Part shown: one piece after another, positions 10,058 through 32,000 of the stretch
Numbering within the stretch: the first letter of the stretch is position 1
How the letters are laid out: each line of letters starts with the position of its first letter
Assembly: GCA_038234335.1 (NCBI GenBank)
Contig: JBBSUN010000014.1
Coordinates: 1-32,000 of the forward strand
From: Mycobacteriales bacterium
Lineage (GTDB): Bacteria > Actinomycetota > Actinomycetes > Mycobacteriales > Mycobacteriaceae
DNA: 32,000 nucleotides
Direction of reading: 5' to 3'
Notes under the pieces: model-generated
Told to the model about the DNA's origin: nothing
The model's database searches: none
Seen by the model: the letters and a program-made list of their open reading frames with translations, nothing else
Made by a program: the position numbers and the translations under genes

Positions 10058-11833
<1,776 letters not shown>

Positions 11834-11879
11834 GGTGGTGTCCTGTCTGGGGTTCGAGAGAGGTGTGGGTGGGGGTCGC

Positions 11880-12755
11880 TCAGCTGCCGGAGAGGCGCTC
11901 GAGCGTGCGCAGCAGGGCCGAGTGGTCCAGCCCGCCGTCGCCGGCGGCCACGGCGGAGGCCATGAGCTGGGCGACGAGGGCCGCGACGGGCGTGACCACC
12001 CCCGCGGCGCGAGCCGCGTCGACGACGATGCCCATGTCCTTGTGGTGCAGCGCGATGCGGAAGCCGGGGTCGAAGGAGCGGGTGCGCATCTTCTCGCCCT
12101 TCTGCACGAGCACGGCCGAGCCGGCGAGGCCGCCGCCGAGGACCTCCAGCGCGGCGGTGGTGTCCACCCCGTGGGCCTCCAGGAACAGCAGCGCCTCGGC
12201 GAGCAGGGCGATGTTGCCCGCCACGATGAGCTGGTTCGCGGCCTTCACGGTCTGGCCGGACCCGCTGGGTCCGACGTGCACGACGGTGCGCCCGACGGCC
12301 TCCAGCAGCGGGCGGGCCGCGGCCACGTCGTCGGCCTCGCCGCCGACCATGATCGACAGCGTTGCCGCCTTCGCCCCGGCCTCCCCGCCGGAGACGGGGG
12401 CGTCGACGTAACGCAGGCCCTGCTCCCGGGCGAGACCGGCGAGCTCGACGGTGACGTCGGGCCGGATGCTCGAGAGGTCGATGACCAGGGTGCCGGGCTC
12501 GGCACTCTCGAGCACGCCACCGGGGTCGGTGAGCACGGCCCGCACGTCGGGGGAGTCGGGAACCATGATGGCGACGACGTCGGCGCCACGGACGGCGTCG
12601 GACACCGACGTCGCGGCCCGCCCTCCTGCCGCCACCAGCGGCGCGGTCCGGTCGGGGGACTGGTTGTACCCGGCCACGGTGTGACCGGCCTCGGCGAGGT
12701 GCACCGACATGGGGCTGCCCATGATGCCGAGACCGATGAAGGCGATGGTGCTCAT
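11880..12755 (-). CDS. glxR: 2-hydroxy-3-oxopropionate (tartronate semialdehyde) reductase
   Basis: 291 aa of the beta-hydroxyacid dehydrogenase family ([13 protein letters not shown] Rossmann motif, [11 protein letters not shown]). It overlaps hyi by 4 nt. Confidence 0.9.
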
Positions 12756-13594
12756 GCTCCGGTGCTCCTGCTCTGTTCGGACGGGGCCGAGCTCCGTCGT
12801 GCGTGGTCGAGGAAGGCAAAGCTGTCCTGCGTGGATCCGGTCGGCTTGTACTCGAGCCCGACCCAGCCCGCGTAGCCCGCGGCCTGCAGGTCGCGGAGCT
12901 GGCGGTCCAGCTCCAGGTGGCCCGAGCCGGGCTCGCCCCGGCCGGGGCTGTCGGCGATCTGCACGTGCGCGATGCGGTCCACGTGCTCGGCGATGACGGC
13001 GTCGACGTCGTCACCGTTGACCGCCAGGTGGTAGAGGTCGGCGAGGAGTGCGACGTTGTCCGCGCCGACCTGGTCGATCACGCGCAGCGCGTCGGCGGCG
13101 GTGAGCAGCGGGTAGCGGGGGGCGCCGCTGACCGGCTCGACCAGGACGGTGGAGCCGCCGGACGCCGCGGCGGAGCTCGCGGCGAGGGTCAGGTTCGCCA
13201 TGGCGAGCTCGTCCTGCACCTGTGGGGCGACGCCGTCGATCCGGTTGCCGTACAGCGCGTTGTAGGTGCGGCAGCCGAGGCGGGCGCCGAGCTCGAGGGT
13301 GGCCGCGACGTTGTCGCGCACCTCGAGCTCGCGGCCCGGCCACGACATGAGCCCCCGGTCGCCGCCGGGCATGTCGCCGGCGAAGAAGTTCAGCCCGACC
13401 AGGGCCACCCCGGCGTCGGTGACCGCCCGGACCAGGGCGTCGGCCTCGGCGTCGGTGGGCACCGCGGTGGCGAAGGGCCACCACAGCTCGATGGCGTCGA
13501 AGCCGGCCCGGCGGGCCGCGGCGGGCCGCTCCAGCAGCGGGAGCTCGGTGAACAGGATCGAGCAGTTGACCTCGAGGGGCAGCGTGTGGGTCAT
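12752..13594 (-). CDS. hyi: hydroxypyruvate isomerase
   Basis: 280 aa of the xylose-isomerase-like TIM-barrel family with an Hyi-type N-terminus (NCSILFTELPLLERPAAARRAGFDAIELWWPF). There is an ATGA overlap with the permease stop. Confidence 0.88.
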   Translation of the reverse strand: MTHTLPLEVNCSILFTELPLLERPAAARRAGFDAIELWWPFATAVPTDAEADALVRAVTDAGVALVGLNFFAGDMPGGDRGLMSWPGRELEVRDNVAATLELGARLGCRTYNALYGNRIDGVAPQVQDELAMANLTLAASSAAASGGSTVLVEPVSGAPRYPLLTAADALRVIDQVGADNVALLADLYHLAVNGDDVDAVIAEHVDRIAHVQIADSPGRGEPGSGHLELDRQLRDLQAAGYAGWVGLEYKPTGSTQDSFAFLDHARRSSAPSEQSRSTGA

Positions 13595-15057
13595 GAGGTC
13601 TCCTTGCGGGCGGACGGGGGCTCGGGGGCGGGTGCCGGTGGGGAGGTGCGGGCGTCGCGGTCGGGGACGGGCAGGTCACCCCGCTCGTCGGGCACCGCCG
13701 CGAACACCGATGCGCCGGAGCGGTTCCCGGCGGTGATCTCGTTGAACAGCACGTTGAGCAGGACCGCCGTCACCGCGGCCGCGCTGATCCCGGAGTCCAT
13801 GACCACGGCCACGCCCTTGGGGAAGGCGTCCCAGAACGTCGGCGCCGCGATCGGGATGACGCCGAGGCCGATGGAGGTGGCCACGATGACCAGGTTGAGG
13901 TTGTCGGAGAAGTCCACCTTGGCCAGGGTCCGGATGCCGCTCGCGGCGACCGTGCCGAAGAGCACGATCCCGGCCCCACCGAGGACGGGGAAGGGGATGG
14001 CGGCGACGACCCGGCCGACGACCGGGAGCAGGCCGAGCAGGAACAGGAGCGCCCCACCCGCAGCGACCACGTACCGGCTCTTGATGCGGGTGAGGGCGAC
14101 CAGGCCGACGTTCTGGGCGAAGGCGCTGCAGGGGAAGGATCCGAGCAGCGGGGAGATCGCCGTCGAGACCATGTCCGCCCGCAGCCCGTCGGCGACGCGC
14201 CGGGCGTCGACGTCGGTCTCCACGATCTCGCCGATGGCGATGATGTCGGCTGTGGTCTCGGTCATGATCACCAGGATCACGATCGTCATCGAGACGATGG
14301 CCCCGACCTGGAAGGTGGGGGAGCCGAAGTGCAGCACCGGGGGCAGCGCGACGATGGTCCCGCTGCCGACGCCGGAGAAGTCGGTCTTGCCCAGCGCCAC
14401 CGCGACGAGCGTGCCGACCACGATGCCGATCAGGATCGACAGCCGGGAGACCGCACCCTGGAACAAGCGGCTGATGGCCAGGATGATGAGCAGCGTGAGG
14501 CCGGCGAGGCCGATGTTGCCGGTGGAGCCGAGGGTCTTGCTCCCGGCGCCGCCCATGGCCCAGGTGAAGGCCACGGGCATCAGCGACAGCCCGATGACGG
14601 TGATGATCGTCCCGGTCACGACGGCAGGGAACAACCGCACCAGCTGGGCGAAGAACGAGGAGAGGGCGAGGCCGATGAGACCGGCGACGATGATCGCGCC
14701 GAACACCGGTCGCAGCCCGTCGGTGCTGGCGATGGCGACCATGGTGGAGACGCTGGCGAAGGAGATGCCCTGCACGATCGGCAGCCGGGCGCCGAAGCGA
14801 CCGATGCCGAGGGTCTGGAGCAGCGTGGCCAGGCCGCTGACGAACAGCCCGGCGGTGACCAGCAGCGCGACGTCGGTGGGCGAGAGGCCGGCCGCCGTGC
14901 CGACGATGAGCGGGGGGGCGATGACCCCGCCGTACATCGTGAGGATGTGCTGCAGCCCGTAGAGGAGCAGCTGTCCCACGGGCATCCTCTCGTCCTCGGG
15001 TCGGCCGGAGCGGACCTCCTGGGTGCGGGGCGTGGCGGTGGTGCGACGCAGCTTCAT
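13591..15057 (-). CDS. nucleobase:cation symporter-2 (NCS2) family permease, probable urate/xanthine transporter
   Basis: Multi-pass membrane protein with the QLLLYGLQHILTMYGG and AFAQNVGLVALT NCS2 motifs. The start is taken at ATG 15057 (MKLRR...), 16 nt after the uricase stop. The track start at 15129 would overlap uricase. Alternative start: 14985. Confidence 0.88.
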   Translation of the reverse strand: MKLRRTTATPRTQEVRSGRPEDERMPVGQLLLYGLQHILTMYGGVIAPPLIVGTAAGLSPTDVALLVTAGLFVSGLATLLQTLGIGRFGARLPIVQGISFASVSTMVAIASTDGLRPVFGAIIVAGLIGLALSSFFAQLVRLFPAVVTGTIITVIGLSLMPVAFTWAMGGAGSKTLGSTGNIGLAGLTLLIILAISRLFQGAVSRLSILIGIVVGTLVAVALGKTDFSGVGSGTIVALPPVLHFGSPTFQVGAIVSMTIVILVIMTETTADIIAIGEIVETDVDARRVADGLRADMVSTAISPLLGSFPCSAFAQNVGLVALTRIKSRYVVAAGGALLFLLGLLPVVGRVVAAIPFPVLGGAGIVLFGTVAASGIRTLAKVDFSDNLNLVIVATSIGLGVIPIAAPTFWDAFPKGVAVVMDSGISAAAVTAVLLNVLFNEITAGNRSGASVFAAVPDERGDLPVPDRDARTSPPAPAPEPPSARKETS

Positions 15058-15073
15058 CGGTGCTCGCCCCCGC

Positions 15074-15979
15074 TCAGCAGAGCCCGGGCGCGGCGTTCCA
15101 GGCCGTGCCGGGGTCGGAGGCGTCGTCACGCGTGACGGTGGTCTCGATCAGGCCGTAGGGCCGGTCGGCGGCGATGAAGACCTCGCCGTGGTTCTCGACC
15201 CCGAAGGGCGAGAGGTCGACGGCGAAGTGGTGCTTGTTGGGCGCGGAGAACCGGATCTCGGCCACCTCGGGGTGCTGCTCGAGCACCGAGGTGCCCATGC
15301 CGAACAGCGACTCCTGCAGGGCGTGGCTGTGGATCTCGGCGAAGCGCTGCAGCAGCGTCGCCTTGATCGCGTCGTAGGTCTCGTCCCAGGCGACGTCGGT
15401 GCCGTCGTACCGCCACCGGGCGACGAGCGAGGTCGCCAAGATGCGGTCGTCGGTCTCTGCGAGCGTCGTGTAGTCGTCGACGAGGAACCCCCGGAACTCC
15501 GAGCCGGTGGTCTTGCCGATGACCAGGTCCGAGACGCCGGAGACGACGTGCACCCGGCGCGAACCACCCGAACCGTCGACGTTGACCACGGTGTTGCGCG
15601 TCCCGCTGCCCCCGCGGACGAAGGAGTGGGCGTGACCGGCGCCGTCGACCTGGATCCGGTCCCAGTGGTACTCCTCGATCTCGACCCGGGCCCCCTCCGC
15701 GGCTGGGATCACCGACACGAAGTGGTCGGCGAGGGCGAGCGCGAAGTCCTCGATCGCGCCGATGCCCTTCTCCTTGGCGAAGGAGAAGATGGTGTTCTTC
15801 TGGGTGTCGGTGGGTAGCACCGCTCCCTGGTCGCCACTGGTGTGGGCGTCCTCGAAGCGACCGCGCAGGGCGCTCGAGACGTTCAGGTCGCGGATCTCGT
15901 GGCGGGCGGTGTCGCGGTACACGCGGAACACGCGGTTCTCGGACTTGCCGTACTGGTTGGGTCCCAGGACGATGGTCAT
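15074..15979 (-). CDS. uox: urate oxidase (cofactor-independent uricase)
   Basis: 301 aa reading MTIVLGPNQYGKSENRVFRVYRD...LPTDTQKNTIFSFAKE...SFVRGG, which are classic uricase signatures. Confidence 0.93.
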   Translation of the reverse strand: MTIVLGPNQYGKSENRVFRVYRDTARHEIRDLNVSSALRGRFEDAHTSGDQGAVLPTDTQKNTIFSFAKEKGIGAIEDFALALADHFVSVIPAAEGARVEIEEYHWDRIQVDGAGHAHSFVRGGSGTRNTVVNVDGSGGSRRVHVVSGVSDLVIGKTTGSEFRGFLVDDYTTLAETDDRILATSLVARWRYDGTDVAWDETYDAIKATLLQRFAEIHSHALQESLFGMGTSVLEQHPEVAEIRFSAPNKHHFAVDLSPFGVENHGEVFIAADRPYGLIETTVTRDDASDPGTAWNAAPGLC

Positions 15980-15980
15980 G

Positions 15981-16313
15981 TCAGCTCCCTCGGTAGGTCG
16001 AGTAGGCGAACGGGCTCAGCAGGAGCGGCACGTGCAGGTGCTGCTCCGGGTCGGAGATCGTGAAGGTCACGCACACCTCTGGGTAGAAGGTGGGCTGACC
16101 GCTGGCTGCGTGGTAGGCCGCCGTGTCGAAGAACAGTCGGTAGGTGCCCGGAGCCAGCGCGTCCGGGGCCAGGTCGCGGGCGCGGCCGTCGGCGTCGGTG
16201 GTCCCGGTGCCGACGGTGCCGTCGGTGGACTCGAGCCGGACGGGGACGCCGGCGGCGGGACGGCCGAGGGACGCGTCGAGGACGTGCGTGGTGACGAGCC
16301 CGGGGCTGCTCAC
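15981..16313 (-). CDS. uraH: 5-hydroxyisourate hydrolase
   Basis: 110 aa: THVLDASLGRPAAGVPVRLE...GTYRLFFDTAAY...HVPLLLSPFAYSTYRGS (transthyretin-like, with the YRGS C-terminal tetrapeptide). GTG 16313 overlaps the uraD stop (GTGA). Confidence 0.9.
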   Translation of the reverse strand: MSSPGLVTTHVLDASLGRPAAGVPVRLESTDGTVGTGTTDADGRARDLAPDALAPGTYRLFFDTAAYHAASGQPTFYPEVCVTFTISDPEQHLHVPLLLSPFAYSTYRGS

Positions 16314-19307: not shown

Positions 19308-20597
19308 TCAGGTCGTCGCGGGCTGCGCGGGGAGGGCGGGCAGCGGGTCGTCGACGACGCGGTCCTGCGCCTGGCGCAGCACCCGCAGGCCCAGCGCGGC
19401 CGCCCCGAAGCAGGCCAGCGCGCCCATGGCAAGCCCGGCCCGCGCGCCGAGGGTCTCGCTGACGTAGCCGGCCACCGGGCCGCCGATGGGGGTGGAGCCG
19501 AGGAAGGCCACCGCCCACAGCGCCATCACCCGGCCGCGCATCTGCGGGTCGGCGCGCAGCTGCAGCGTCGAGTTGCCGGTGGCGAGGAAGCCCACGCTCA
19601 CCGCGCCGACCAGGGCCAGCGCCACCAGCTCGGTGGGCAGGTTGGGTGCGTACGCCGCACCCAGCATCACCACCCCGAACAGCGCCGAGGTGCCGACCAG
19701 CGTGCGGATCCCGGTGCGCCCACGGGCGGCGACGTACAGCCCGCCGAGCACGGCGCCGATCCCCATGGCCGCCGTCATGAAGCCGTAGGTCTGCGAGCCG
19801 CCGCCGAAGGTGGTGTCGGCGAGCACCGGCAGGGTCACCTGGAACTCGTAGGCCAGGCACCCGACGAGGGCCATCATGAGCAGCGGGACGCCGAGGCCCC
19901 GGTGGGCCCGCACGTAGCGGAACCCGTCGCGCAGCTGCCCCTTCGCCCGGACCGCGGGGGCCGACGGGCGCAGCGCAGAGGTGTCCAGGGTGGACAGCGA
20001 GACGACGACCGCCGCGAAGCTGACCGCGTTGAGCAGGAAGCAGATCCCGGTGCCGCCGAGAGCGATGATGATGCCGGCGAGCGCCGGACCCACGGCGCGG
20101 GCGGCGTTGACCAGCACCGAGTTCAGGCTCACCGCGTTGCGCAGGTCGTCGGGGCCGACCATCTCGAGCACGAAGGCCTGCCGCGCCGGGTTCTCGAAGC
20201 AGCTGTTCAGCCCGAGCAGGAAGGCGAGGGCGTACACCTGCCACAGCGCCACCACGCCGGTGACGGTGAGCAGGCCGAGCACCAGGGCGAGCACGCCCAT
20301 CATCGACTGCAGCCCGATCATGAGTCGGCGCTTGTCGAGCCGGTCGGCGACGACACCGCCGTACGGACCGAGCAGCAGCACCGGCAGCGTCTGCAGCGCG
20401 ACGACGACACCGAGCGCGGTCGCCGAGCCGGTGAGGGTCAGCACCAGCCACGACTGGGCGACGGTCTGCATCCACGTGCCCAGCAGCGAGATCAGCTGCC
20501 CCGAGGTGTACCGACGGTAGTTGGGGTTGCGCAGCGCCGCGAAGGTCTCGCCCCGCAGGGCGCGAGCGCGGGTGGAGACGTGGGTGGCGGCGCTCAC
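19308..20597 (-). CDS. MFS transporter (EntS/MFS_3-like efflux permease)
   Basis: 429 aa with about 12 hydrophobic segments, an N-terminal FRRYTSGQLISLLGTWMQ stretch and a VADRLDKRR loop motif. The GTG start overlaps the MarR stop (GTGA). Confidence 0.88.
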   Translation of the reverse strand: MSAATHVSTRARALRGETFAALRNPNYRRYTSGQLISLLGTWMQTVAQSWLVLTLTGSATALGVVVALQTLPVLLLGPYGGVVADRLDKRRLMIGLQSMMGVLALVLGLLTVTGVVALWQVYALAFLLGLNSCFENPARQAFVLEMVGPDDLRNAVSLNSVLVNAARAVGPALAGIIIALGGTGICFLLNAVSFAAVVVSLSTLDTSALRPSAPAVRAKGQLRDGFRYVRAHRGLGVPLLMMALVGCLAYEFQVTLPVLADTTFGGGSQTYGFMTAAMGIGAVLGGLYVAARGRTGIRTLVGTSALFGVVMLGAAYAPNLPTELVALALVGAVSVGFLATGNSTLQLRADPQMRGRVMALWAVAFLGSTPIGGPVAGYVSETLGARAGLAMGALACFGAAALGLRVLRQAQDRVVDDPLPALPAQPATT

Positions 20598-21031
20598 GCG
20601 GGGTCACCGGCCAGCGCCTCGAGCGCGTCCAGCGCGGCCAGCAGCGACGCGCGGTGGGCGGGCTCGAGCGCGGCGAGGCGGGCGGCGAGGAGCCGGCTGC
20701 GCTCGGCCCGCACCCGGACGTGCAGTGCGTGACCGGCCTCGGTGGCCTCGACCCGCGCGGCCCGGCGGTCGTCGGGATCGGTGGTGCGGGCCAGCAGCCC
20801 GGCGTCGTCGAGCTTGCCGACGATCCGGGACAGCATGGTCGGGTTGATGCCCTCCCGCTGCGCCAGCTCGCCGATGCCGAGCGGGCCCAGGCGGGTCACC
20901 GTGCCGAGCACGGAGCTCTGCGTGCGTGTCAGCCCCCCGTCCGCCGACTGCCGCTCCAGCCAGCGGGCGGTGCGGGCGAGCGCGGTGCGCAGCCGGGTGA
21001 CCTCCTCGCTCCCGGACCCGTCAAGTTGCAT
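20594..21031 (-). CDS. MarR family transcriptional regulator
   Basis: Winged-HTH pattern LTRTQSSVLGTVTRLGPLGIGELAQREGINPTMLSRIVGKLDDAGLLAR..DPDDRRA. The start is taken at ATG 21031 (MQLDGSG), 7 nt after a TATGCT hexamer. Alternatives are 21043 and 21076. Confidence 0.85.
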   Translation of the reverse strand: MQLDGSGSEEVTRLRTALARTARWLERQSADGGLTRTQSSVLGTVTRLGPLGIGELAQREGINPTMLSRIVGKLDDAGLLARTTDPDDRRAARVEATEAGHALHVRVRAERSRLLAARLAALEPAHRASLLAALDALEALAGDPA

Positions 21032-21291
21032 GCCGAGAAGCATACATCGCGGTCGGACGTCCACGACCGTGTGCACCCGCGGAACCTGCTGCCCTGCGCG
21101 CGGACCTCGCTCGTCTTCCCGCTGCGCTGCGCGGCGGCGCGGGGCGGGCTGCAGGTGCTGGGCGTGCGGGGCCGAGCTGGGGAGGCCGAGCTACGACGGA
21201 CGGGGCTGCGGGCCCGGAACCGCCGGCCCTGGGCACGGGGGAGGGGCCGAGGCCGGAACCCGGAGCGCGGCCGGGCCCTAGGGTCACGGAC

Positions 21292-22122
21292 GTGCTGCCA
21301 CGCGTGCGGGCGACCCGCTACGTCACCCCGCTGCGGGAGGGGGGCTCCCTGCCCGGGCTCGTCGAGGCCGACGACCTGGGCACGTACGTGGTGAAGTTCC
21401 ACGGCGCCGGGCAGGGCCGCAAGACCCTCGTCGCCGAGGTCGTCACCGGGGAGCTCGCCCGCGAGCTGGGCCTGGCCGTGCCCCGCCTGGTCACCGTCGA
21501 CGTCGATCCCGCCCTGGCGCCCGGGGAGCCCGACGAGGAGGTGCAGGACCTGCTGCGCGCCAGCCCGGGACTGAACCTGGGGATGGACTTCCTGCCCGGG
21601 GCGCTGGATCTCGACGCGGCCTGGGTCGATCCGCCGACGGCCGGACGGGTGCTGTTCCTGGACGCGCTCGTCGGCAACGTCGACCGGAGCTGGCGCAACC
21701 CGAACATGCTGCTGTGGCACCGGGAGCCGTGGCTGATCGACCACGGGGCGACGCTGACCTTCCACCACCACTGGCCCGGCGCCGAGGCCTTCCCCGCCCG
21801 TCCCTACGACGCCCGGGCGCACTTGCTGCTCACCGCCGCACCCGAGCTCGACCCGGCCGCCGCGGCGCTCGCGCCGCAGGTCACCCCCGAGCTGCTGGAG
21901 GACGTGGTGGCCCAGGTGCCCGAGGCCTGGCTGGCCGACGAGCCGGGCTTCGACGACCCGGCGCAGGTGCGGGCGGCCTACGTGCGGCTGCTCGGCGCCC
22001 GGGTCGCGCAGCGCGAGGCGTGGCTGCCGGGGGTGCACGAGGCCGTGGCCGCGGCGCCGTCCGTGCGGGCGCCGGTGGAGATCGGCCGCACCCGCCCGCG
22101 CTGGCTCGGGCCGGCCCAGTGA
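21292..22122 (+). CDS. HipA-like / PI3-PI4-kinase-like protein kinase family protein
   Basis: 276 aa with YVVKFHGAGQG (Lys codon 21394-21396), the catalytic-loop-like GNVDRSWRNPNML (21673-21711) and the metal-binding-like LIDHG (21733-21747). GC3 is high. The stop overlaps the next gene's GTG. Confidence 0.75.
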   Translation: MLPRVRATRYVTPLREGGSLPGLVEADDLGTYVVKFHGAGQGRKTLVAEVVTGELARELGLAVPRLVTVDVDPALAPGEPDEEVQDLLRASPGLNLGMDFLPGALDLDAAWVDPPTAGRVLFLDALVGNVDRSWRNPNMLLWHREPWLIDHGATLTFHHHWPGAEAFPARPYDARAHLLLTAAPELDPAAAALAPQVTPELLEDVVAQVPEAWLADEPGFDDPAQVRAAYVRLLGARVAQREAWLPGVHEAVAAAPSVRAPVEIGRTRPRWLGPAQ

Positions 22123-22541
22123 CCCCGACCCCCGGTTCCCCAGCCGTGCACGCCCCCGCCGTGCACGCCTCCGCCCTGCACGCCTACGAGTACGCCGTGC
22201 TGCGCGTGGTCCCGCGCGTCGAGCGCGGCGAGGCGATGAACGCCGGGGTGCTGCTGTGGTGCCGGCCGCTGCAGGCGCTGCACGCCCGGGTGCACCTGGA
22301 CGGCGCCCGGCTGCACGCGCTGGACCCGCACGCCGATGCCGATGCGGTCGCCCACGCCCTGGCCGCGGTGCTCGACGTGTGCGCCGGGGTGGGGGCGGCC
22401 GGGGCCGAGCCCGCCGGTGGGCGGTTCCGCTGGCTCACCGCGCCGCGCAGCACCGTCGTCCAGCCCGGCCCCGTGCACACCGGGCTGACCGCGGACCCCG
22501 TCGTCGAGGTCGACCGGCTGCTCGAGGTCCTCGTCCGCTGA
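22119..22541 (+). CDS. DUF3037 domain protein
   Basis: YEYAVLRVVPRVERGEAMNAGVLLWC...RFRWLTAPRSTVVQPGPVHTG matches my recollection of the DUF3037 pattern. The GTG at 22119 overlaps the kinase stop (GTGA). In-frame alternative GTGs are at 22146 and 22161. Confidence 0.7.
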   Translation: MTPTPGSPAVHAPAVHASALHAYEYAVLRVVPRVERGEAMNAGVLLWCRPLQALHARVHLDGARLHALDPHADADAVAHALAAVLDVCAGVGAAGAEPAGGRFRWLTAPRSTVVQPGPVHTGLTADPVVEVDRLLEVLVR

Positions 22542-22578
22542 CGGGAACACGTTCGCCGCGCGAAAGGTTGGGGCGGAG

Positions 22579-23427
22579 ATGACGCAGGCAGCGAACCCGG
22601 TCCCGGACACCGCCCTCAACGACGGCACGACGATCCCCCAGCTCGGGTACGGGGTGTTCCAGGTGCCCGAGCAGGAGACGTTCGACGCCGTCTCGGCCGC
22701 CCTGGCCGCCGGGTACCGCCACATCGACACCGCCAAGATCTACGGCAACGAGCGGGGCGTGGGACGGGCCATCGCCGAGTCCGGCATCCCCCGCGACGAC
22801 GTCTACGTGACCACGAAGCTGTGGAACGCCGACCACGGCCACGACGCCACCCTGCGGGCCTTCGACACCAGCCTGGGCGAGCTCGGCCTGGAGCAGCTCG
22901 ACCTGTACCTCATCCACTGGCCGGTGCCCGCCAAGGACGAGTGGGTGAGCACGTGGAGGGCCTTCGAGCAGCTGCAGGCCGACGGCCGGGTCACCTCGAT
23001 CGGCGTCTCCAACTTCACCGTGCCGCTGCTGCAGCGGCTGCTGGAGGAGACCGACGTGGTGCCGGTGCTCAACCAGATCGAGCTGCACCCGCGGTTCTCC
23101 CAGCCCGAGCTGCGCGCCTTCCACGCCGACCACGACATCCGCACCGAGGCCTGGAGCCCCCTGGGGGGGCAGGGTGGTTCGGTGCTCGACCAGGACACCC
23201 TCGTCGCGGTGGCGCAGGCCCACGGCAGGAGCCCGGCGCAGACCGTGCTCCGCTGGCACCTGCAGCTGGGCAACATCGTCATCCCCAAGTCGTCCACCCC
23301 CTCGCGCATCGCGGAGAACTTCGACGTCTTCGACTTCGAGCTCACCGGCGACGAGATGGCCTCGCTGGCCACCATGGACGACGGCAGCCGCGTCGGTCCC
23401 GACCCGGCCCGGGCCAACTTCGCGTAG
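22579..23427 (+). CDS. aldo/keto reductase (2,5-diketo-D-gluconate reductase-like)
   Basis: 282 aa with GYRHIDTAKIYGNE, LDLYLIHWP and IPKSSTPSRIAENF, which are the AKR catalytic tetrad context. Confidence 0.92.
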   Translation: MTQAANPVPDTALNDGTTIPQLGYGVFQVPEQETFDAVSAALAAGYRHIDTAKIYGNERGVGRAIAESGIPRDDVYVTTKLWNADHGHDATLRAFDTSLGELGLEQLDLYLIHWPVPAKDEWVSTWRAFEQLQADGRVTSIGVSNFTVPLLQRLLEETDVVPVLNQIELHPRFSQPELRAFHADHDIRTEAWSPLGGQGGSVLDQDTLVAVAQAHGRSPAQTVLRWHLQLGNIVIPKSSTPSRIAENFDVFDFELTGDEMASLATMDDGSRVGPDPARANFA

Positions 23428-23456
23428 CCCTCCCGGCCGCACCCGCGAGGCGGGGG

Positions 23457-24566
23457 TCAGGCGAGGAGCTCCCGGACCTCGCGCACGGCGGCCCGCCCGG
23501 CCCGGTTGGCGCCGATGGTGCTGGCCGAGGGTCCGTACCCCAGCAGGTGCACCCGGGGCTCGCCCGCGACCCGGGTGGCCAGGGTGCCGTCCATCCGGAT
23601 GCCCCCGCCCGGTGAGCGCAGGTGCAGCGGCGCCAGGTGGTCCAGGGCCGAGCGGAACCCGGTGCACCACAGCACGACGTCGGCACGCAGCGTCTCCCCT
23701 CCACCCCAGGATCCCCCGTGCCAGGCCACCCCCTCGGGCACGAGCCGGGTGAACATCGGCCGCCGTGCCAGCACCCCGCGCTCGCGCGCCCGGGCGAGCG
23801 ACGGGGTCAGCGGCAGCCCCGTCGCGCTGACCACGCTGCCCGGCGGCAGCCCCGCCCGGACCCGCTGCTCCACCCGGGCCACCGCGGCCCGGCCCTCGGA
23901 CGCCCGGAACGGACGCTCGTCGAAGACCGGCTCCCGTCGGGTCACCCACGTCGTCGTCGTGACCTCGCTGATCTCGGTGAGCAGCTGGACGCCGGAGATC
24001 CCGCCCCCGACGACGACGACGTGGCGGCCCGCGAACGCCGCCGCGCTGCGGTACTGCGCGGTGTGCAGCTGCTCGCCGTCGAAGCGGCCGGGGACGTGCG
24101 GCACGAAGGGGCGCTCCCAGCTGCCGGTGGCGTTCAGCACCGCCCGGGCGCGCCAGGTGCCGGTCGGGGTCTCCACGTCGAGACGGTCCGAGTCGGGACG
24201 GTCCGAGTCGAGACGGTGACCGACCGGTCGGGGCCGCACGGCACGGACGTCCACGGGTCGCTGCACGTCCAGGCCGAGCTCGTGCTCGTAGCGGGCGAAG
24301 TAGGCGGGCACCACCTCGGCCGCCCGCACCTCCGGGTCCTCGATCTCCGGCGCCAGGGTCGCCAGCGGCAGCCCCGGCAGGTCGTGCACGTGGTTCGTGG
24401 TCCCCAGGGTCAGGCTCGGCCACCTGTGCTGCCACGCCCCGCCGGGGGCGTCGTCGTGGTCGAGCACCACGTGCCCCAGCCCCGAGCGCTGCAGGAAGTA
24501 GGCCGCGCTCAGCCCGGCCTGGCCGGCCCCGACGACCACCACGTCGACGTCGGTGGGGGTGCGCAC
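23457..24566 (-). CDS. FAD/NAD(P)-binding flavin-containing monooxygenase-like oxidoreductase
   Basis: These are the C-terminal 369 aa of the 593-aa track ORF: DVVVVGAGQAGLSAAYFL (FAD GxGxxG) and a second VVVVGGGISGVQ (NADPH) motif. The start is at GTG 24566. The gene is divergent from the AraC gene. Confidence 0.82.
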   Translation of the reverse strand: MRTPTDVDVVVVGAGQAGLSAAYFLQRSGLGHVVLDHDDAPGGAWQHRWPSLTLGTTNHVHDLPGLPLATLAPEIEDPEVRAAEVVPAYFARYEHELGLDVQRPVDVRAVRPRPVGHRLDSDRPDSDRLDVETPTGTWRARAVLNATGSWERPFVPHVPGRFDGEQLHTAQYRSAAAFAGRHVVVVGGGISGVQLLTEISEVTTTTWVTRREPVFDERPFRASEGRAAVARVEQRVRAGLPPGSVVSATGLPLTPSLARARERGVLARRPMFTRLVPEGVAWHGGSWGGGETLRADVVLWCTGFRSALDHLAPLHLRSPGGGIRMDGTLATRVAGEPRVHLLGYGPSASTIGANRAGRAAVREVRELLA

Positions 24567-24648
24567 GTCGGGGCCAACGCGGGCAGGGTCCGGCGCAGTC
24601 CCGGGCCGGCTCGGGTGGGCGGTCGCAGACCGGGACCCGCCAGGGAGG

Positions 24649-25632
24649 ATGATGAGGGCGCGGGATCGGCCGAGGACGGGAGCGTCGCGCGTGGGCACGG
24701 TGTCGGTGCAGCGCGTCAGCACGACCGGCGTCCCCACGGCGGAGCGCCTCGAGTTCTGGCAGGCCACCGTCTCGGCGTCGCTGCGACCGGTGCTGCTGAC
24801 CCCCGCCCAGGCGTTCGGCCGTGAGTTCCAGGCCGAGTTCCTCCGCGTGGACGCCGGTGCCGCCAAGATCACTCGGGGTCTGGTGGACCCGGTCCGGTCC
24901 GTGCAGACCCCGGCGCTCGCCCGCCAGCAGTCGGGGAACCTCATCGTCACCCTGCAGGAGTCGGGTCGGACGGGGCTGGAGTCGCGCTCCGGGGCGATCG
25001 TCGTGCCGGCACGCTCGGTGCTGATCCAGTCCGACGACGAGCCGGTCGTGCACACCCACCTCGACCGCACCGGCATGGTGCTGCTGTCGGTCGACGCCGA
25101 CCGGCTCTCCCTCCCGACCACCTCGCTGCGCGAGCACATGAACGTTGCGCTGCCCGTCGACGCGATGCTTCGTGCCGTGGTGCTCGGCGCGGCCGAGACC
25201 GCGCGGCACGCCGGTCGGACGATGGACGCGACGGGCATGGAGGCCTACCTCACCGGTGTCGTCGAGCTGGTGCTGCGCACCGTGACGGGACGCGCCGAGG
25301 ACCACGCGAGCAGCGCCGGGGTGCGCCGGCAACAGGTCCACGACACGGTGCTCGCGCGCTACTCCGACCCGCACCTCACCGTCGGCGTGGTGGCGGAGAA
25401 GCTGGGCGTGTCGGTGCGCCGGCTCCACCAGCTCTTCGCGGGCGAGGACAGCGTCACCGCCCAGATCCGCACCGCCCGGATGGAGTGCGCCGTCCGGCTG
25501 CTGCAGGACCCGGCGTGGTCGTCGCAGCCCGTCGCGGCCGTGGCCCAGCGCTGCGGCTTCCTCGACCACTCCCAGTTCTCCCGCGCCTTCCGCCAGCACA
25601 CCGGTTCGTCCCCGAGCGCCTTCCGCAGCTGA
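24649..25632 (+). CDS. AraC family transcriptional regulator
   Basis: The C-terminal dual HTH reads VVAEKLGVSVRRLHQLFAGE...VAAVAQRCGFLDHSQFSRAFRQHTGSSPSAFR. The start is uncertain: ATG 24649/24652 directly behind GGGAGG, or GTG 24691. The track start at 24553 would overlap the divergent gene. Confidence 0.85.
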   Translation: MMRARDRPRTGASRVGTVSVQRVSTTGVPTAERLEFWQATVSASLRPVLLTPAQAFGREFQAEFLRVDAGAAKITRGLVDPVRSVQTPALARQQSGNLIVTLQESGRTGLESRSGAIVVPARSVLIQSDDEPVVHTHLDRTGMVLLSVDADRLSLPTTSLREHMNVALPVDAMLRAVVLGAAETARHAGRTMDATGMEAYLTGVVELVLRTVTGRAEDHASSAGVRRQQVHDTVLARYSDPHLTVGVVAEKLGVSVRRLHQLFAGEDSVTAQIRTARMECAVRLLQDPAWSSQPVAAVAQRCGFLDHSQFSRAFRQHTGSSPSAFRS

Positions 25633-25646
25633 GCCCGCGTCCGGCG

Positions 25647-25726
25647 GTGCGTTGGTGGAAGCCCCTGTGCGTTCGTGGAAGCCGCTGTGCGTTCGTGGAA
25701 GCCGCTGTGCACAGGAGGAAACCGGT
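25647..25726. repeat. intergenic 20-bp tandem direct repeat, about 3.5 copies
   Basis: The units are GTGCGTTGGTGGAAGCCCCT (25647-25666), GTGCGTTCGTGGAAGCCGCT (25667-25686), GTGCGTTCGTGGAAGCCGCT (25687-25706) and a degenerate GTGCACAGGAGGAAACCGGT (25707-25726). The period is not a multiple of 3. There are no spacers, so this is not CRISPR. Confidence 0.9.
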
Positions 25727-25914
25727 GTCACCAAGGATCGCGCCCGGCCGAACAACAGACAACCGGGTCGCAACGGGACGACGGGGTGCCACCACCTCGG
25801 TCCAGGAGCCCCGGTGACGGCGCCGACCCCACTGACGAGGGGACAGTGGGGTCGCGCCCGTCGTCGTGCCCGCACCGGGGAACACACCGGGCCGGGGGCG
25901 TGGTTGGGGCAGAG

Positions 25915-26928
25915 ATGAAGTCCGTCGTCTACACCGAGCCCGGGGACCCGGCGGTCCTGCAGCACGTCGAGCGTCCCGCGGCGCACCCCGGACCCGGTGA
26001 GGTCCGGGTCCGCGTCGTCGTCGCCGGGGTCAACCCGACCGACTGGAAGACCCGTAGCGGCGCCTCGGGTCCCATGCTGTTCGACGAGGTGTCGCCCGGC
26101 CAGGACGGGGCCGGGGTCGTCGACGCCCTGGGCGAGGGCGTCACCGGGCTCGAGGTCGGCCAGCGGGTGTGGCTGTACCTCGCCCAGCACGGGCGCGCGG
26201 TCGGCACGGCGGCCGAGCTCACCACCCAGCCGGCGTCCCGGGTCGTCCCGCTGCCCGAGGGCGCCAGCTTCGACGTGGGGGCGTCCCTGGGGGTGCCCGC
26301 GATCACCGCGCACCGGGCGCTGACCGTGCGCGACGGCGGTGCGAGCCGCCTCGCTCCGGGGACGCTGGACGGGCAGGTGGTGCTCGTGGCCGGGGGTGCC
26401 GGGGCCGTGGGTCACGCGGCCATCCAGCTCGCGCGGTGGGCCGGCGCGACGGTCGTCGCCACCGTGAGCGGTCCGGCCAAGGCGGCGCTGGCCGAGGCCG
26501 CCGGGGCCCACCACGTGGTCACCTACACCTACGGCGACCCGGCCGCGGAGATCCGCGCGATCGCCCCGGACGGCGTGCACGTCGTCGTCGAGGTCGCGCC
26601 CGGGCCCAACGCGGCGCTGGACGCGGCCGTGCTCGCCCCGCACGGCACCATCGCCGTCTACGCCAACAACGGCGGCGACCAGGTGCGCCTGGACGTGCGC
26701 CCGCACATGGTGCTGAACACCCGCTGGCAGTTCGTGCTGCTGTACACCGTGGGGGAGCAGGCCCTGGCGAACGCCGCGGAGGACGTGACCGCCGCGGTGG
26801 CCGACGGCGCGATGGAGGTCGGTCGCGAGACGGGGCTGCCGCTGCACCGCTTTCCCCTGGAGCGCACCGCGCTCGCCCACTCCGCCGTCGAGGACAACGT
26901 GGTCGGCAAGGTGTTGATCGACCTGTGA
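25915..26928 (+). CDS. NADPH:quinone oxidoreductase (zeta-crystallin-like MDR)
   Basis: MKSVVYTEPGDPAVLQHVERP...VRVVVAGVNPTDWKTRSG...VLVAGGAGAVGHAAIQLAR. The start is ATG 25915. The track ORF start at 25675 lies in the repeat region. Confidence 0.88.
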   Translation: MKSVVYTEPGDPAVLQHVERPAAHPGPGEVRVRVVVAGVNPTDWKTRSGASGPMLFDEVSPGQDGAGVVDALGEGVTGLEVGQRVWLYLAQHGRAVGTAAELTTQPASRVVPLPEGASFDVGASLGVPAITAHRALTVRDGGASRLAPGTLDGQVVLVAGGAGAVGHAAIQLARWAGATVVATVSGPAKAALAEAAGAHHVVTYTYGDPAAEIRAIAPDGVHVVVEVAPGPNAALDAAVLAPHGTIAVYANNGGDQVRLDVRPHMVLNTRWQFVLLYTVGEQALANAAEDVTAAVADGAMEVGRETGLPLHRFPLERTALAHSAVEDNVVGKVLIDL

Positions 26929-26938
26929 GCGCACGCCG

Positions 26939-28420: not shown

Positions 28421-28470
28421 TTGTCAACAAGGATTGACGCAGCCGAGTGCGTCAATGTAGGTTGACCGCG
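28421..28470 (+). promoter_or_regulatory. promoter plus palindromic operator upstream of the HTH/NRPS unit
   Basis: TTGTCAACAAGG-ATTGACGCA-GCCGAG-TGCGTCAAT-GTAGGTTGACCGCG-ATG. A perfect 9-bp inverted repeat spans 28433-28441/28448-28456. The promoter reads -35 TTGACG (28434-28439), an 18-nt spacer, then -10 TAGGTT (28458-28463), 7 nt before ATG 28471, which predicts a leaderless transcript. Confidence 0.55.
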
Positions 28471-28680
28471 ATGTCCAGAGCCACCCGCCTCGCCCGCGCC
28501 GCGGGTTCCGACGACCCGTCGACCGGCCTGGGAGCCGTTGCTGCGCTGCGTGTCCAGCTGGAGGAGCTCGAGGCGACGCAGGTGGGCAACGCCCGCAACC
28601 GGGGCTGGTCCTGGGCGGAGATCGCCACCGAGCTCGGCGTCAGCCGCCAGGCCGTGCACAAGAAGCACGCCACCAGCTGA
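28471..28680 (+). CDS. small helix-turn-helix DNA-binding protein (69 aa)
   Basis: MSRATRLARAAG...ARNRGWSWAEIATELGVSRQAVHKKH is a sigma-70 region-4-like / Hin-like HTH. The track start at 28447 lies inside the operator, so ATG 28471 is preferred. Confidence 0.75.
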   Translation: MSRATRLARAAGSDDPSTGLGAVAALRVQLEELEATQVGNARNRGWSWAEIATELGVSRQAVHKKHATS

Positions 28681-28699
28681 GCGCCCGGAGGAAACACCG

Positions 28700-31600
28700 T
28701 TGTCCCCAAGCAGGTCCCCCAGCACGACCACCGACCCGCTCCGGCGCGCCGGGCACGCCCCGCCGGCCCGCACCCTGCTGGACGTCCTCGCCGCCACCAC
28801 GGCCGCCCACCCCGACGAGCCCGCGCTGGACGACGGCACCACCGTCCTCACCTACCTCGAGCTGGCCGCCGCCGCGCACGCGCTGGCCCGCAGGCTGGCC
28901 CGGCGTGGGGTCGGTCCGGGCGCACGGGTGGGGGTGCGGATGCCGTCGGGCTCGGTCGAGCTCTACGTCGCGATCCTCGGGATCCTCGCCGCCGGGGCCG
29001 CGTACGTGCCCGTCGACGTGGACGACCCCGACGAGCGGGCGCAGCTGGTCTTCGGCGAGGCCGCCGTCGCGCTGGTGCTGGACGGCACCGTGCTGGAGGG
29101 CCCCGTGGTGGAGGGCACCGTGCTGGAGGGCCCCGTGCTGGAGGGCCCCGACTCGGACGGGAGCGACCTGCCGGGCACCGCCGCCGAGCCCACCGCACCG
29201 GGCCTGACCGACGACGCCTGGATCATCTTCACCTCCGGCTCCACCGGCACCCCCAAGGGCGTCGCGGTGAGCCACCGCAGCGCGGCCGCCTTCGTCGATG
29301 CGGAGGCGCGCCTGTTCTGCGTCGACGCGCCCCTGGGCCCCGGGGACCGGGTGCTCGCCGGGCTGTCGGTCGCCTTCGACGCCAGCTGCGAGGAGATGTG
29401 GCTCGCCTGGGGCCACGGGGCCGCCCTGGTCCCCGCCCCGCGCGCGCTCGTGCGCACCGGGACCGACCTCGGGCCCTGGCTGGTGGCGCGGGAGATCACC
29501 GTGGTCTCCACCGTCCCCACCCTCGCCGCGCTGTGGCCCGCCGAGGCGCTCGAGGCCGTGCGGCTGCTCGTCTTCGGCGGCGAGGCGTGCCCCGAGGAGC
29601 TCGCGGCCCGCCTCTCCGTGCCCGGGCGCGAGGTGTGGAACACCTACGGCCCCACCGAGGCCACCGTCGTCGCGTGTGCGGCACGACTGGGCGGGGACGG
29701 TCCGGTGCGGATCGGGCTGCCGCTGGACGGCTGGGACCTCGCCGTGCTCGACCCCGACGGGAACCCGGTGGGCGAGGGTTCCTCCGGCGAGCTGGTCATC
29801 GGCGGAGTGGGTCTGGCCCGGTACCTCGACCCGGCCAAGGACGCCGAGAAGTACGCTCCTGCAGCGGTGCTGGGCTGGGACCGCGCCTACCGCTCCGGTG
29901 ACCAGGTTCGCAACGACGCCGCGGGTCTGGTGTTCGTGGGGCGTCTGGACGACCAGGTCAAGCTGGGCGGGCGCCGCATCGAGCTCGGCGAGGTCGACGC
30001 GGCGCTGGCCGCTGCACCCGGGGTCGCCGGCGCCGCTGCCGCCGTGCGCGGCCCGGCCGGGGGCCACCAGCTGCTCGTGGGCTACGTGGTGCCCGGGCCG
30101 GGCTACGACCGCGACGTCGTGCGTGCCCAGCTGCGCGAGACCCTGCCCGCCGCCCTGGTGCCGCTGCTGGCCGAGGTGCGGACGCTGCCCACCCGCACCT
30201 CCGGCAAGGTGGACCGTGGGGCGCTGCCCTGGCCCCTGGAGCAGGGACCCACCGTCGAGCTCGACGGCACCGCCGGGTGGGTCGCCCGGCGGTGGGCGGG
30301 TGTCCTGGGCTCCACCCCGGGTCTCGACGACGACTTCTTCACCCACGGCGGGGGCAGCCTGGCCGCCGCCCAGCTCGTGGCCGCCCTGCGCGCCCGCCAC
30401 CCGGGGGTCACCGTGGCCGACGTCTACGACCACCCACGCCTCGGCGCGCTGGCCGGGCACCTGGACTCCCTGCGCCCCGCCGAGGTCGTCACCGAGCGGC
30501 ACGTGCGGCCGGTGCCGCGGCGGGCCCAGGCCGTGCAGGTGGCGCTCACGCTCCTGCTGCAGACCCTCGTCGGGCTGCGGTGGCTGACCTGGACCGCGCT
30601 GCTGGCCAACAGCCTGGCCGCGGTCACCGGGGCGCCCTGGCTGCCCACCACGTCGTGGTGGTGGGTGGTGCTGGGGTGGCTGCTGCTGGGCACCCCACCC
30701 GGGCGGATGGGCGTCTCCGTGCTCGGGTCCCGGCTGCTGCTGCGCGGCGTCGTCCCCGGTGCGCACCCGCGCGGCGGCTCGGTGCACCTGCGGCTGTGGT
30801 GCTGCGAGCAGCTCGCCGCGGCCAGCGGCGCCGCGAACCTCGCCGGGGCCCCCTGGATCACCTACTACGCGCGGGCGCTGGGGGCCACGCTCGGTCCCGG
30901 GGTGGACCTGCACTCGTTGCCCCCGGTGACCGGGATGCTGACGCTGGGGGCAGGGGCCTCGATCGAGCCCGAGGTGGACCTCGCCGGGTACTGGCTCGAC
31001 GGGGACGTGCTGCACCTCGGGCGGGTGCACGTCGGCGCCGACGCGCACGTCGGGGCCCGCAGCACCCTGCTGCCGGGGGCGCACCTGGGCCGCGGCGCGC
31101 ACCTGTCCGCCGGGTCCTCGCTGGACGCCACCGTGCCCCCGGAGCAGACGTGGGCTGGCTCCCCGGCGGTGCGCACCCCGGTGGCCCGCCCGTCCTGGCC
31201 GCCCGCCCGCCCCCAGCGCGCCCCGGGCTGGGTGCCCGCCTACGGGGTGGCCTCCGCCGTCCTCGGGGCGCTGCCGCTGCTGGCGGCGTCCGTCGGGCTC
31301 GTCGTCGTCGGCTCCCTGGTGGCCGGGGCGGACTCCCTCGGCTCCGCCACCACCCGTGCCCTGCTCGCGGCGCCGCTGGGGGCGCTCGTCGCGCTGGTGG
31401 TCTTCGCCGGGCTCGTGCTGGGCGGGGTGCGGGCGCTCAGCGTCGGCATCCGGGCCGGGCACCACCCCGTGCGCAGCCGCACCGGGTGGCAGGTGTGGGC
31501 CACGCTGCGGCTGATGGACGACGCCCGCACCTGGCTGTTCCCGCTGTACTCCTCGCTGGCCACCCCCGTGTGGCTGCGGCTGCTCGGGGCGCGCATCGGG

Positions 31601-32000
31601 CGCGGCGTGGAGGCCTCGACCGTCCTCATGCTCCCGTCGCTGACCACGGTGCGCGACGGGGCGTTCCTCGCCGACGACACCATGGTCGGCACCTACGAGC
31701 TCGGGGGCGGCTGGATCAGGGTGGAGCGCACCCGCATCGGGCGTCGGGCGTTCCTGGGCAACTCCGGGTTCACCGGGCCCGGCCGCAAGGTCCCCCGCGA
31801 CGGGCTCGTGGCCGTCCTCGCCGGCACCCCCCGCAAGGCCAAGGCGGGCTCGTCGTGGCTGGGCAGCCCCCCGGTCCGGTTGCGCCGCAACGCCGCCGAG
31901 GTCGATGAGTCGCGCACCTTCGCCCCGACGCCCCGGCTGCGGGTGGCCCGCTCGCTGGTGGAGCTGTGCCGGGTGGTCCCCGTGGCGATCTCCGTCGCGC
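28700..32000 (+). CDS. Pls/PosA-type single-module non-ribosomal peptide synthetase (A-T-TM-LbH repeats), partial at the window end
   Basis: A frame open from TTG 28700 (GGAGGA at 28687-28692) to the window end, at least 1100 codons, and not listed in the ORF track. It carries A-domain cores AYVPVD, FTSGSTGTPKG (about 29227-29260), NTYGPTE, GELVIGG, YRSGD, GRLDDQVKLGGRRIELGE and SGKVDR, plus T-domain FFTHGGGSL (Ser codon 30356-30358). Paired hydrophobic segments then alternate with hexapeptide-repeat soluble domains. No C or TE domain is present. Confidence 0.85.
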   Translation, partial: MSPSRSPSTTTDPLRRAGHAPPARTLLDVLAATTAAHPDEPALDDGTTVLTYLELAAAAHALARRLARRGVGPGARVGVRMPSGSVELYVAILGILAAGAAYVPVDVDDPDERAQLVFGEAAVALVLDGTVLEGPVVEGTVLEGPVLEGPDSDGSDLPGTAAEPTAPGLTDDAWIIFTSGSTGTPKGVAVSHRSAAAFVDAEARLFCVDAPLGPGDRVLAGLSVAFDASCEEMWLAWGHGAALVPAPRALVRTGTDLGPWLVAREITVVSTVPTLAALWPAEALEAVRLLVFGGEACPEELAARLSVPGREVWNTYGPTEATVVACAARLGGDGPVRIGLPLDGWDLAVLDPDGNPVGEGSSGELVIGGVGLARYLDPAKDAEKYAPAAVLGWDRAYRSGDQVRNDAAGLVFVGRLDDQVKLGGRRIELGEVDAALAAAPGVAGAAAAVRGPAGGHQLLVGYVVPGPGYDRDVVRAQLRETLPAALVPLLAEVRTLPTRTSGKVDRGALPWPLEQGPTVELDGTAGWVARRWAGVLGSTPGLDDDFFTHGGGSLAAAQLVAALRARHPGVTVADVYDHPRLGALAGHLDSLRPAEVVTERHVRPVPRRAQAVQVALTLLLQTLVGLRWLTWTALLANSLAAVTGAPWLPTTSWWWVVLGWLLLGTPPGRMGVSVLGSRLLLRGVVPGAHPRGGSVHLRLWCCEQLAAASGAANLAGAPWITYYARALGATLGPGVDLHSLPPVTGMLTLGAGASIEPEVDLAGYWLDGDVLHLGRVHVGADAHVGARSTLLPGAHLGRGAHLSAGSSLDATVPPEQTWAGSPAVRTPVARPSWPPARPQRAPGWVPAYGVASAVLGALPLLAASVGLVVVGSLVAGADSLGSATTRALLAAPLGALVALVVFAGLVLGGVRALSVGIRAGHHPVRSRTGWQVWATLRLMDDARTWLFPLYSSLATPVWLRLLGARIGRGVEASTVLMLPSLTTVRDGAFLADDTMVGTYELGGGWIRVERTRIGRRAFLGNSGFTGPGRKVPRDGLVAVLAGTPRKAKAGSSWLGSPPVRLRRNAAEVDESRTFAPTPRLRVARSLVELCRVVPVAISVA

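Follow-up and report, generated by a model that had tools for sequence, protein, structure and literature searches.

The 32,000-nt stretch of DNA analyzed here (the window; contig JBBSUN010000014.1 of a Mycobacteriales bacterium, positions 1 to 32,000) ends inside a gene of the Pls/PosA family, the membrane-anchored nonribosomal peptide synthetases (NRPSs) to which epsilon-poly-L-lysine synthetase (Pls) belongs. Translation of positions 28700 to 32000 on the plus strand from a TTG codon at 28700 gave 1,100 codons with no stops, open to the window end, and it covers codons 1 to 1100 of a pls-type gene, or its 5′ 85% (28700 to 31999, + strand). Its GC fractions at the three codon positions are 0.79, 0.57, and 0.97, which is typical of a real gene in DNA of 75% GC, and the plus-strand frame is therefore taken as the real gene. 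The 941-aa open reading frame (ORF) on the opposite strand (28640 to 31465, − strand) has fractions of 0.95, 0.58, and 0.80; because its maximum falls at codon position 1, this ORF is an antisense shadow and not a gene. Two observations back TTG 28700 as the start codon: a ribosome-binding site, GGAGG, lies 9 to 13 nt 5′ of it, and the N-terminus called for a 93%-identical homolog, P0001, agrees with it.

The initial annotation of this DNA had held that the real gene runs without a stop to the window end and that the ORF track displays its antisense shadow alone, and both the frame and the codon composition agree with that account. The mechanical ORF list leaves out ORFs that run off the source, so that pls is absent from it and only the shadow is displayed. 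The further claim that the gene is hidden holds for such a naive list and no further. The NCBI annotation pipeline names proteins of this kind. ORF tracks that drop genes overrunning the window call for caution in high-GC DNA, where they leave antisense shadows standing alone. Elsewhere in the window, the 1,499-aa minus-strand ORF at 22435 to 26934 is likewise spurious, a long ORF of the sort that DNA this rich in GC tends to produce; it spans real plus-strand genes (aldo-keto reductase, AraC, and Zn-dependent alcohol dehydrogenase [Zn-ADH]) and also overlaps, in a different frame, a real minus-strand flavin oxidoreductase gene (23457 to 25238).

The N-terminal half of the protein carries just one adenylation and one thiolation domain, the arrangement that marks the family. 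Pfam searches matched AMP-binding (aa 33 to 374), AMP-binding_C (aa 431 to 503), and PP-binding (aa 527 to 588), and neither the window protein nor full-length P0001 matched the condensation and thioesterase families (PF00668 and PF00975) at an E value of ≤0.01, as the initial annotation had read from the translation. The adenylation domain (aa 33 to 503; 28796 to 30208, + strand) scored 345 bits against the NCBIfam amino acid adenylation model TIGR01733 (cutoff, 317). Its core motifs A1 to A10 look intact by eye, judged without a tool score against the published motif consensus. The thiolation (carrier) domain (aa 527 to 588; 30278 to 30463, + strand) was placed by its PP-binding match of 39.7 bits and by motif position, and the phosphopantetheine serine is Ser553 (nt 30356 to 30358), within FFTHGGGS. 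Inside the adenylation domain lies an in-frame tandem repeat of 5.1 copies of the 15-nt unit GTGCTGGAGGGCCCC, which encodes VLEGP (29075 to 29150, + strand; Tandem Repeats Finder score, 124; 90% matches). The repeat falls in a length-variable loop ahead of the TSGSTGxPKG motif. It is missing from P0001, which points to a recent 60-nt tandem expansion, and at least one other homolog, P0002, holds an even longer insert in the same loop.

The C-terminal part is a membrane-embedded domain built of repeated units. Family membership is defined by a C-terminal domain of ~700 aa scoring above the cutoff of TIGR02353 ("Pls/PosA family NRPS"), and the window protein scored 468.1 bits against a cutoff of 423.1 over aa 612 to 1099, even with its end missing. 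The match covers profile positions 2 to 494 of 695, so the window end truncates the domain; P0001 matches across the whole profile (1 to 695, 728 bits). Membrane segments were placed by Kyte-Doolittle hydropathy and with an AlphaFold model of the C-terminal 710 residues of P0001 (predicted TM score [pTM], 0.75; mean predicted local distance difference test [pLDDT], 68), in which confidence is high for the helices and low for the beta regions (pLDDT, 40 to 60). That model contains six long helices in three pairs. Trp/Leu-rich transmembrane segments TM1 (aa 607 to 643) and TM2 (aa 653 to 680) occupy 30518 to 30739 (+ strand), with weak hydropathy signal and model helices at residues 7 to 43 and 53 to 80 (pLDDT, 84 to 91). 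They are followed by a soluble domain, C1 (aa 681 to 843; 30740 to 31228, + strand), by TM3 (aa 844 to 874) and TM4 (aa 880 to 914; together 31229 to 31441, + strand; Kyte-Doolittle peaks of 2.3 and 2.6; model helices at 244 to 274 and 280 to 314), and by a second soluble domain, C2 (aa 915 to 1091; 31442 to 31972, + strand), which lies within the TIGR02353 match. The first residues of TM5 (VPVAISVA..., from aa 1092; 31973 to 31999, + strand) are cut by the window end, at the aligned position where TM5 of P0001 begins.

C1 has a hexapeptide-repeat core, with the repeat at aa 776 to 810 below the Pfam threshold in the window protein and above it in P0001. In hhalign comparisons the C1 and C2 units are homologous (probability, 98.7%; E value, 4e-16), and the three units of TM pair plus soluble domain are mutually homologous at probabilities of 97 to 99% (E values, 1e-10 to 1e-16). 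Profile searches of the PDB matched the domain to hexapeptide-repeat acyltransferases and gamma-carbonic anhydrases only, and Foldseek matched the model to serine, galactoside, and maltose acetyltransferases. These results support a left-handed beta-helix fold for the C domains, in a part of the model where confidence is low (pLDDT, 40 to 60), and the fold agrees with a published model of PosA (PMC10522769). No solved or cryo-electron microscopy structure of a Pls-type polymerization domain was found in the PDB profile search or the literature search. The layout by eye in the initial annotation proved accurate: its two pairs of hydrophobic segments, at 30525 to 30720 and 31210 to 31440, are TM1-2 and TM3-4 in both the hydropathy scan and the model, its hexapeptide-like stretch GPGVDLHS...HLSAGS (placed near 30870 to 31140) lies at 30893 to 31117, and the second soluble domain that it saw running off the window is C2, the homolog of the first.

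An estimated ~590 nt (~195 codons) of pls lie beyond the window end, judging from the 1,294-aa P0001, the closest protein in the searched collection. P0001 is encoded on L081, a 4.8-kb Logan contig with 94% nucleotide identity to the window, and all insertions and deletions between the two are multiples of three, with no frameshift. The window holds TM1 to TM4, C1, C2, and the start of TM5; TM5-6 and C3, which complete the family's six transmembrane segments and three C domains, are seen only in P0001, which thereby bears out the earlier expectation of ~1,300 aa, six transmembrane helices, and a third soluble domain. Exact-protein lookups aimed at the 3′ end of the window pls gave short Logan contigs from sample SRR24807090 or no match, and an exact 51-nt scan of metagenome contigs gave none.

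On L081 the P0001 gene is followed by one with a Peptidase_M1_N match, whose start shares a 4-nt overlap with the P0001 stop codon. This gene order corresponds to that of pls and pldII; in Streptomyces albulus, translation of pldII is coupled to that of pls (PMC9223678), and the same pls-peptidase operon has been noted in Corynebacterium variabile (PMC8117764). Among the genome scan matches listed, of which the best is 66% identical, 79 of 80 related loci (L001 to L080) encode a homologous M1 peptidase directly downstream on the same strand, at about 13.8 to 15.3 kb in each. These peptidases are 49 to 69% identical across many actinobacterial orders, and the sole locus without a match is L021, from Gordonia sp. 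B21. By analogy, a translationally coupled PldII-type M1 metallopeptidase is expected ~590 nt past the window end.

The substrate was read from the 10-residue specificity code. Alignment with MAFFT to GrsA-PheA gave DAESVGTVVK, the same code that had been read by eye; the GrsA reference sequence is validated by giving DAWTIAAICK at the 10 code positions. The initial annotation had compared this code with a lysine code written as DAESIGSVCK, which is slightly off. S. albulus Pls and all experimentally confirmed Pls enzymes have DAESIGTVVK (PMC10522769, Supplementary Table 2; PMC8117764, Data Set S3), as do the S. albulus Pls structure 7WEW and almost all of 120 homologs in our searches. The match is therefore closer than was first thought, with 9 of 10 residues of the lysine pocket identical and a conservative Ile-to-Val change at position 5. 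Position 2 is Ala in lysine, Met in ornithine (Orn), Phe in 2,3-diaminopropionate (Dap) and 2,4-diaminobutyrate (Dab), and Gly in beta-lysine (beta-Lys) enzymes, and it has been proposed to set substrate chain length (PMC10522769); the window protein has Ala. The acidic residues at positions 1 and 3 (Asp235 and Glu239 in GrsA numbering) are present as well; such residues, which serve to bind the two amino groups, are reported to be conserved in all family members (PMC10522769). Among solved structures, the best match to the adenylation domain is 7WEW (637 bits, 68% identity), followed by ordinary NRPS chains over the adenylation and carrier regions (≤385 bits), whereas the adenylation domain of PosA (8G95) gave only 194 bits, so that this domain is closer to confirmed Pls than to PosA, an enzyme for another substrate. 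The earlier guess of a basic amino acid is thus supported and can be narrowed: code and structure match make L-lysine the most likely substrate.

A different cationic substrate (Orn, Dab, Dap, beta-Lys, or Arg), and with it a different homopolymer, is very improbable in our view. The code is one position off that of Pls (Ile to Val), and the family includes enzymes for Orn, Dab, Dap, and beta-Lys as well as a homolog with modest Arg activity (PMC10522769). However, the changed residue has no substrate contact in crystal structures of PosA (PMC10522769), and the same Val variant occurs sporadically within the clade (P0059, P0092, and P0107). The Ala at the chain-length position as in all lysine enzymes, the identity to Pls at 9 of 10 code residues, and the contrast between 68% identity to the Pls adenylation domain and 194 bits to PosA also argue against another substrate.

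Homologs with 60 to 68% identity and lengths of ~1,290 to 1,310 aa were found throughout the Actinomycetota in protein and genome searches, in Kribbella, Rhodococcus, Prescottella, Nocardia, Mycobacterium, Gordonia, Tsukamurella, Amycolatopsis, Micromonospora, Cellulomonas, Cryobacterium, and other genera. Beyond the 93%-identical P0001, the next relative is 68% identical. The window protein is linked in steps to an enzyme of known product: it is 65% identical to P0058 of Prescottella equi, which is a near-identical match to the Rhodococcus hoagii homolog WP_005515789.1, and the latter is ~60% identical to the C. variabile enzyme. That enzyme, 51% identical to Pls, makes epsilon-PL (epsilon-poly-L-lysine) of 26 to 35 residues, and Rhodococcus homologs with the same pocket were listed by Jiang et al. 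in 2021 (PMC8117764). The homolog sequences in Data Set S3 of that study are cut at ~430 aa and do not include the confirmed references, and a search of the protein collection with the 7WEW fragment for full-length S. albulus Pls returned partial proteins only (≤851 aa; best identity, 78%).

Taken together, these findings make it very probable that the window gene is the 5′ 85% of a Pls ortholog, a membrane-anchored single-module NRPS whose most likely product is epsilon-PL, an antimicrobial polymer. The predicted protein contains an adenylation-thiolation (A-T) loading module with the Pls lysine pocket and a carrier serine, no condensation or thioesterase domain, and a putative C-terminal polymerization domain of repeated units of a TM pair and a left-handed beta-helix. 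The architecture of an epsilon-poly-L-lysine synthetase, which had been proposed from the translation, is thus supported by the domains, the TIGR02353 match, and the full length of P0001. If the enzyme works like characterized Pls, the adenylation domain would convert L-lysine to Lys-AMP, and the lysine would then pass to the carrier domain and be held there as a thioester. Packed as a pseudotrimer on a six-helix membrane bundle, the three C domains would catalyze attack on this thioester by an epsilon-amino group, supplied either by a free lysine or by the free chain as it grows. Repetition of this attack would give iterative chain growth without a template. Epsilon-PL of a few tens of residues would be released outside the cell, and the translationally coupled M1 metallopeptidase of the PldII type, just past the window, may trim or degrade it.

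Several points weigh against this interpretation. The linkage of the polymer (epsilon or other) and its chain length are projected from characterized enzymes and not read from the sequence, and the last ~195 codons and the downstream gene lie outside the window, their content being taken from a 93%-identical homolog from another sample. The polymerization domain could be compared with uncharacterized homologs only, to which it is 41 to 52% (a partial Streptomyces protein, P0121) or 45 to 72% (Kribbella and Prescottella proteins) identical. The (VLEGP)5 insertion might affect the adenylation domain; it lies in a loop whose length varies among homologs. Native C. variabile produced no detectable polymer (PMC8117764), and such pls genes may be silent in their native hosts.

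Some of these points would also fit an enzyme of the Pls/PosA family that polymerizes lysine into a product other than the classical 25- to 35-mer epsilon-PL, for example, chains that are far shorter or far longer, or a polymer that stays associated with the cell and has a physiological, not antibiotic, role in non-Streptomyces actinobacteria. In TM1-2 and C1, identity to the Streptomyces homolog drops to 41 to 52%. The clade is conserved in Mycobacteriales, Kribbella, Pseudonocardiales, and Micrococcales, and in C. variabile the native gene was silent (PMC8117764). However, the C. variabile enzyme is farther from Pls than is the window adenylation domain and still yields 26- to 35-mers (PMC8117764), and the conservation of a pldII-like peptidase points to a product made on the same principle. 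We therefore regard a different lysine polymer as unlikely. Inactivity or decay of the gene, for example, through damage by the (VLEGP)5 expansion or truncation past the window, is highly improbable: the 60-nt expansion is absent from the nearest homolog and the 3′ end lies outside the window, but the 3,300 nt contain no stops or frameshifts at a third-position GC (GC3) of 0.97, the insertions and deletions relative to L081 are all multiples of three, the catalytic motifs look intact by eye against the published consensus, and the insertion sits where homologs such as P0002 hold even longer inserts.

The DNA upstream of pls differs from that of related loci. A 69-aa ORF (28471 to 28680, + strand) ends 19 nt before the pls start and carries a helix-turn-helix (HTH) at its C-terminus, with weak matches to HTH_23 and Sigma70_r4_2 (sigma-70 region 4). 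The ORF and its arrangement are kept in two Logan contigs of close relatives, one of them L081, and the ORF had no match in the 80 related pls loci. It is possibly a lineage-specific regulator cotranscribed with pls, which would make it part of the system. Five nucleotides upstream of it lies a 19-nt imperfect inverted repeat, GTCAACAAGGATTGACGCA / TGCGTCAATGTAGGTTGAC (28423 to 28466; 79% complementary; 6-nt spacer), in a locally AT-richer stretch with TTGAC motifs, which may be an operator or promoter element. A scan for the sigma-70 consensus upstream of pls found nothing, which is uninformative for an actinobacterium. With the (VLEGP)5 repeat, the HTH ORF and the inverted repeat are the three lineage-specific local features. 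It may be speculated that in native hosts the non-Streptomyces clade makes a polymer of different length or localization with a physiological role, perhaps switched here by the HTH protein and the inverted repeat, but we hold this as doubtful and give it little weight beside the synthesis of epsilon-PL by a Pls ortholog.

Farther upstream lie genes for an MBL-fold hydrolase, the Zn-dependent dehydrogenase, an AraC regulator, the flavin oxidoreductase, and the aldo-keto reductase; the MBL-fold, Zn-ADH, and AraC genes had no counterpart in the 80 related loci, and not one of the five genes keeps its place beside pls elsewhere. The remaining window genes have ordinary catabolic and metabolic functions (e.g., uricase, a xanthine/uracil-type permease, a thiamine pyrophosphate [TPP] enzyme, and an amidohydrolase). 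No extended biosynthetic cluster surrounds pls, and the locus is a pls(-pldII) unit on its own, like those of known producers. Unrelated to pls, a minus-strand run at 10058 to 16015 (TPP-dependent enzyme, xylose isomerase-like TIM-barrel protein, xanthine/uracil-type permease, and uricase) looks like a purine/urate catabolism cluster, and an ORF at 21001 to 22122 with a HipA-like kinase domain (PF20613) adjoins an MFS_3 transporter gene on the opposite strand (19308 to 20603).

Epsilon-polylysine has approval as a food preservative, and related enzymes of the family produce further cationic isopeptide polymers, so that each new synthetase is a possible variant for production or engineering. 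The window enzyme adds little in this respect, with its standard lysine pocket and canonical architecture. Annotations of equivalent genes exist in Rhodococcus, Nocardia, Mycobacterium, Kribbella, and many further genera; many of the homologs are already named "Pls/PosA family non-ribosomal peptide synthetase," and standard pipelines recognize such genes in thousands of actinobacterial genomes. AntiSMASH calls such loci NAPAA and scores their similarity to epsilon-poly-L-lysine at 100%, as in Tsukamurella (PMC11387468). The window pls is thus an ordinary gene, a new sequence of a thoroughly known kind.

Among named systems, Pls of S. albulus NBRC 14147 (BAG68864.1; 7WEW) shares with the window protein the A-T-(TM pair plus C domain)×3 architecture, an adenylation domain with 68% identity and a code identical at 9 of 10 positions, and the translationally coupled downstream metallopeptidase, which is expected for the window gene. 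The window protein differs from it in the Val for Ile at code position 5, in the (VLEGP)5 loop insertion, in the small upstream HTH ORF at its locus, and in a lower similarity in the membrane and C1 regions, as judged against a partial Streptomyces homolog only; the epsilon-PL product is ascribed to the window enzyme by analogy. C. variabile Pls (WP_014008652.1 / WP_148263309.1) likewise belongs to a pls-peptidase operon of a non-Streptomyces actinobacterium, and it and the coryneform and Rhodococcus homologs of Jiang et al. have a pocket of the DAESIGTVVK type (PMC8117764); the C. variabile enzyme has made epsilon-PL heterologously, whereas the window enzyme is known from sequence alone. PosA, the delta-poly-L-ornithine synthetase of Acinetobacter baumannii (8G95 to 8G98), shares the TIGR02353 family model, the overall architecture, and the acidic code residues Asp (position 1) and Glu (position 3), but its code is DMEHNGTVSK, its substrate is Orn, its similarity to the window adenylation domain is low, and its operon is a single gene without a peptidase (PMC10522769). 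The poly-Dap, poly-Dab, and poly-beta-lysine synthetases of Streptomyces and Streptoalloteichus belong to the same family and have the same membrane architecture, whereas they have Phe or Gly in place of Ala at code position 2 and stand in other gene contexts (PMC10522769; PMC8117764).

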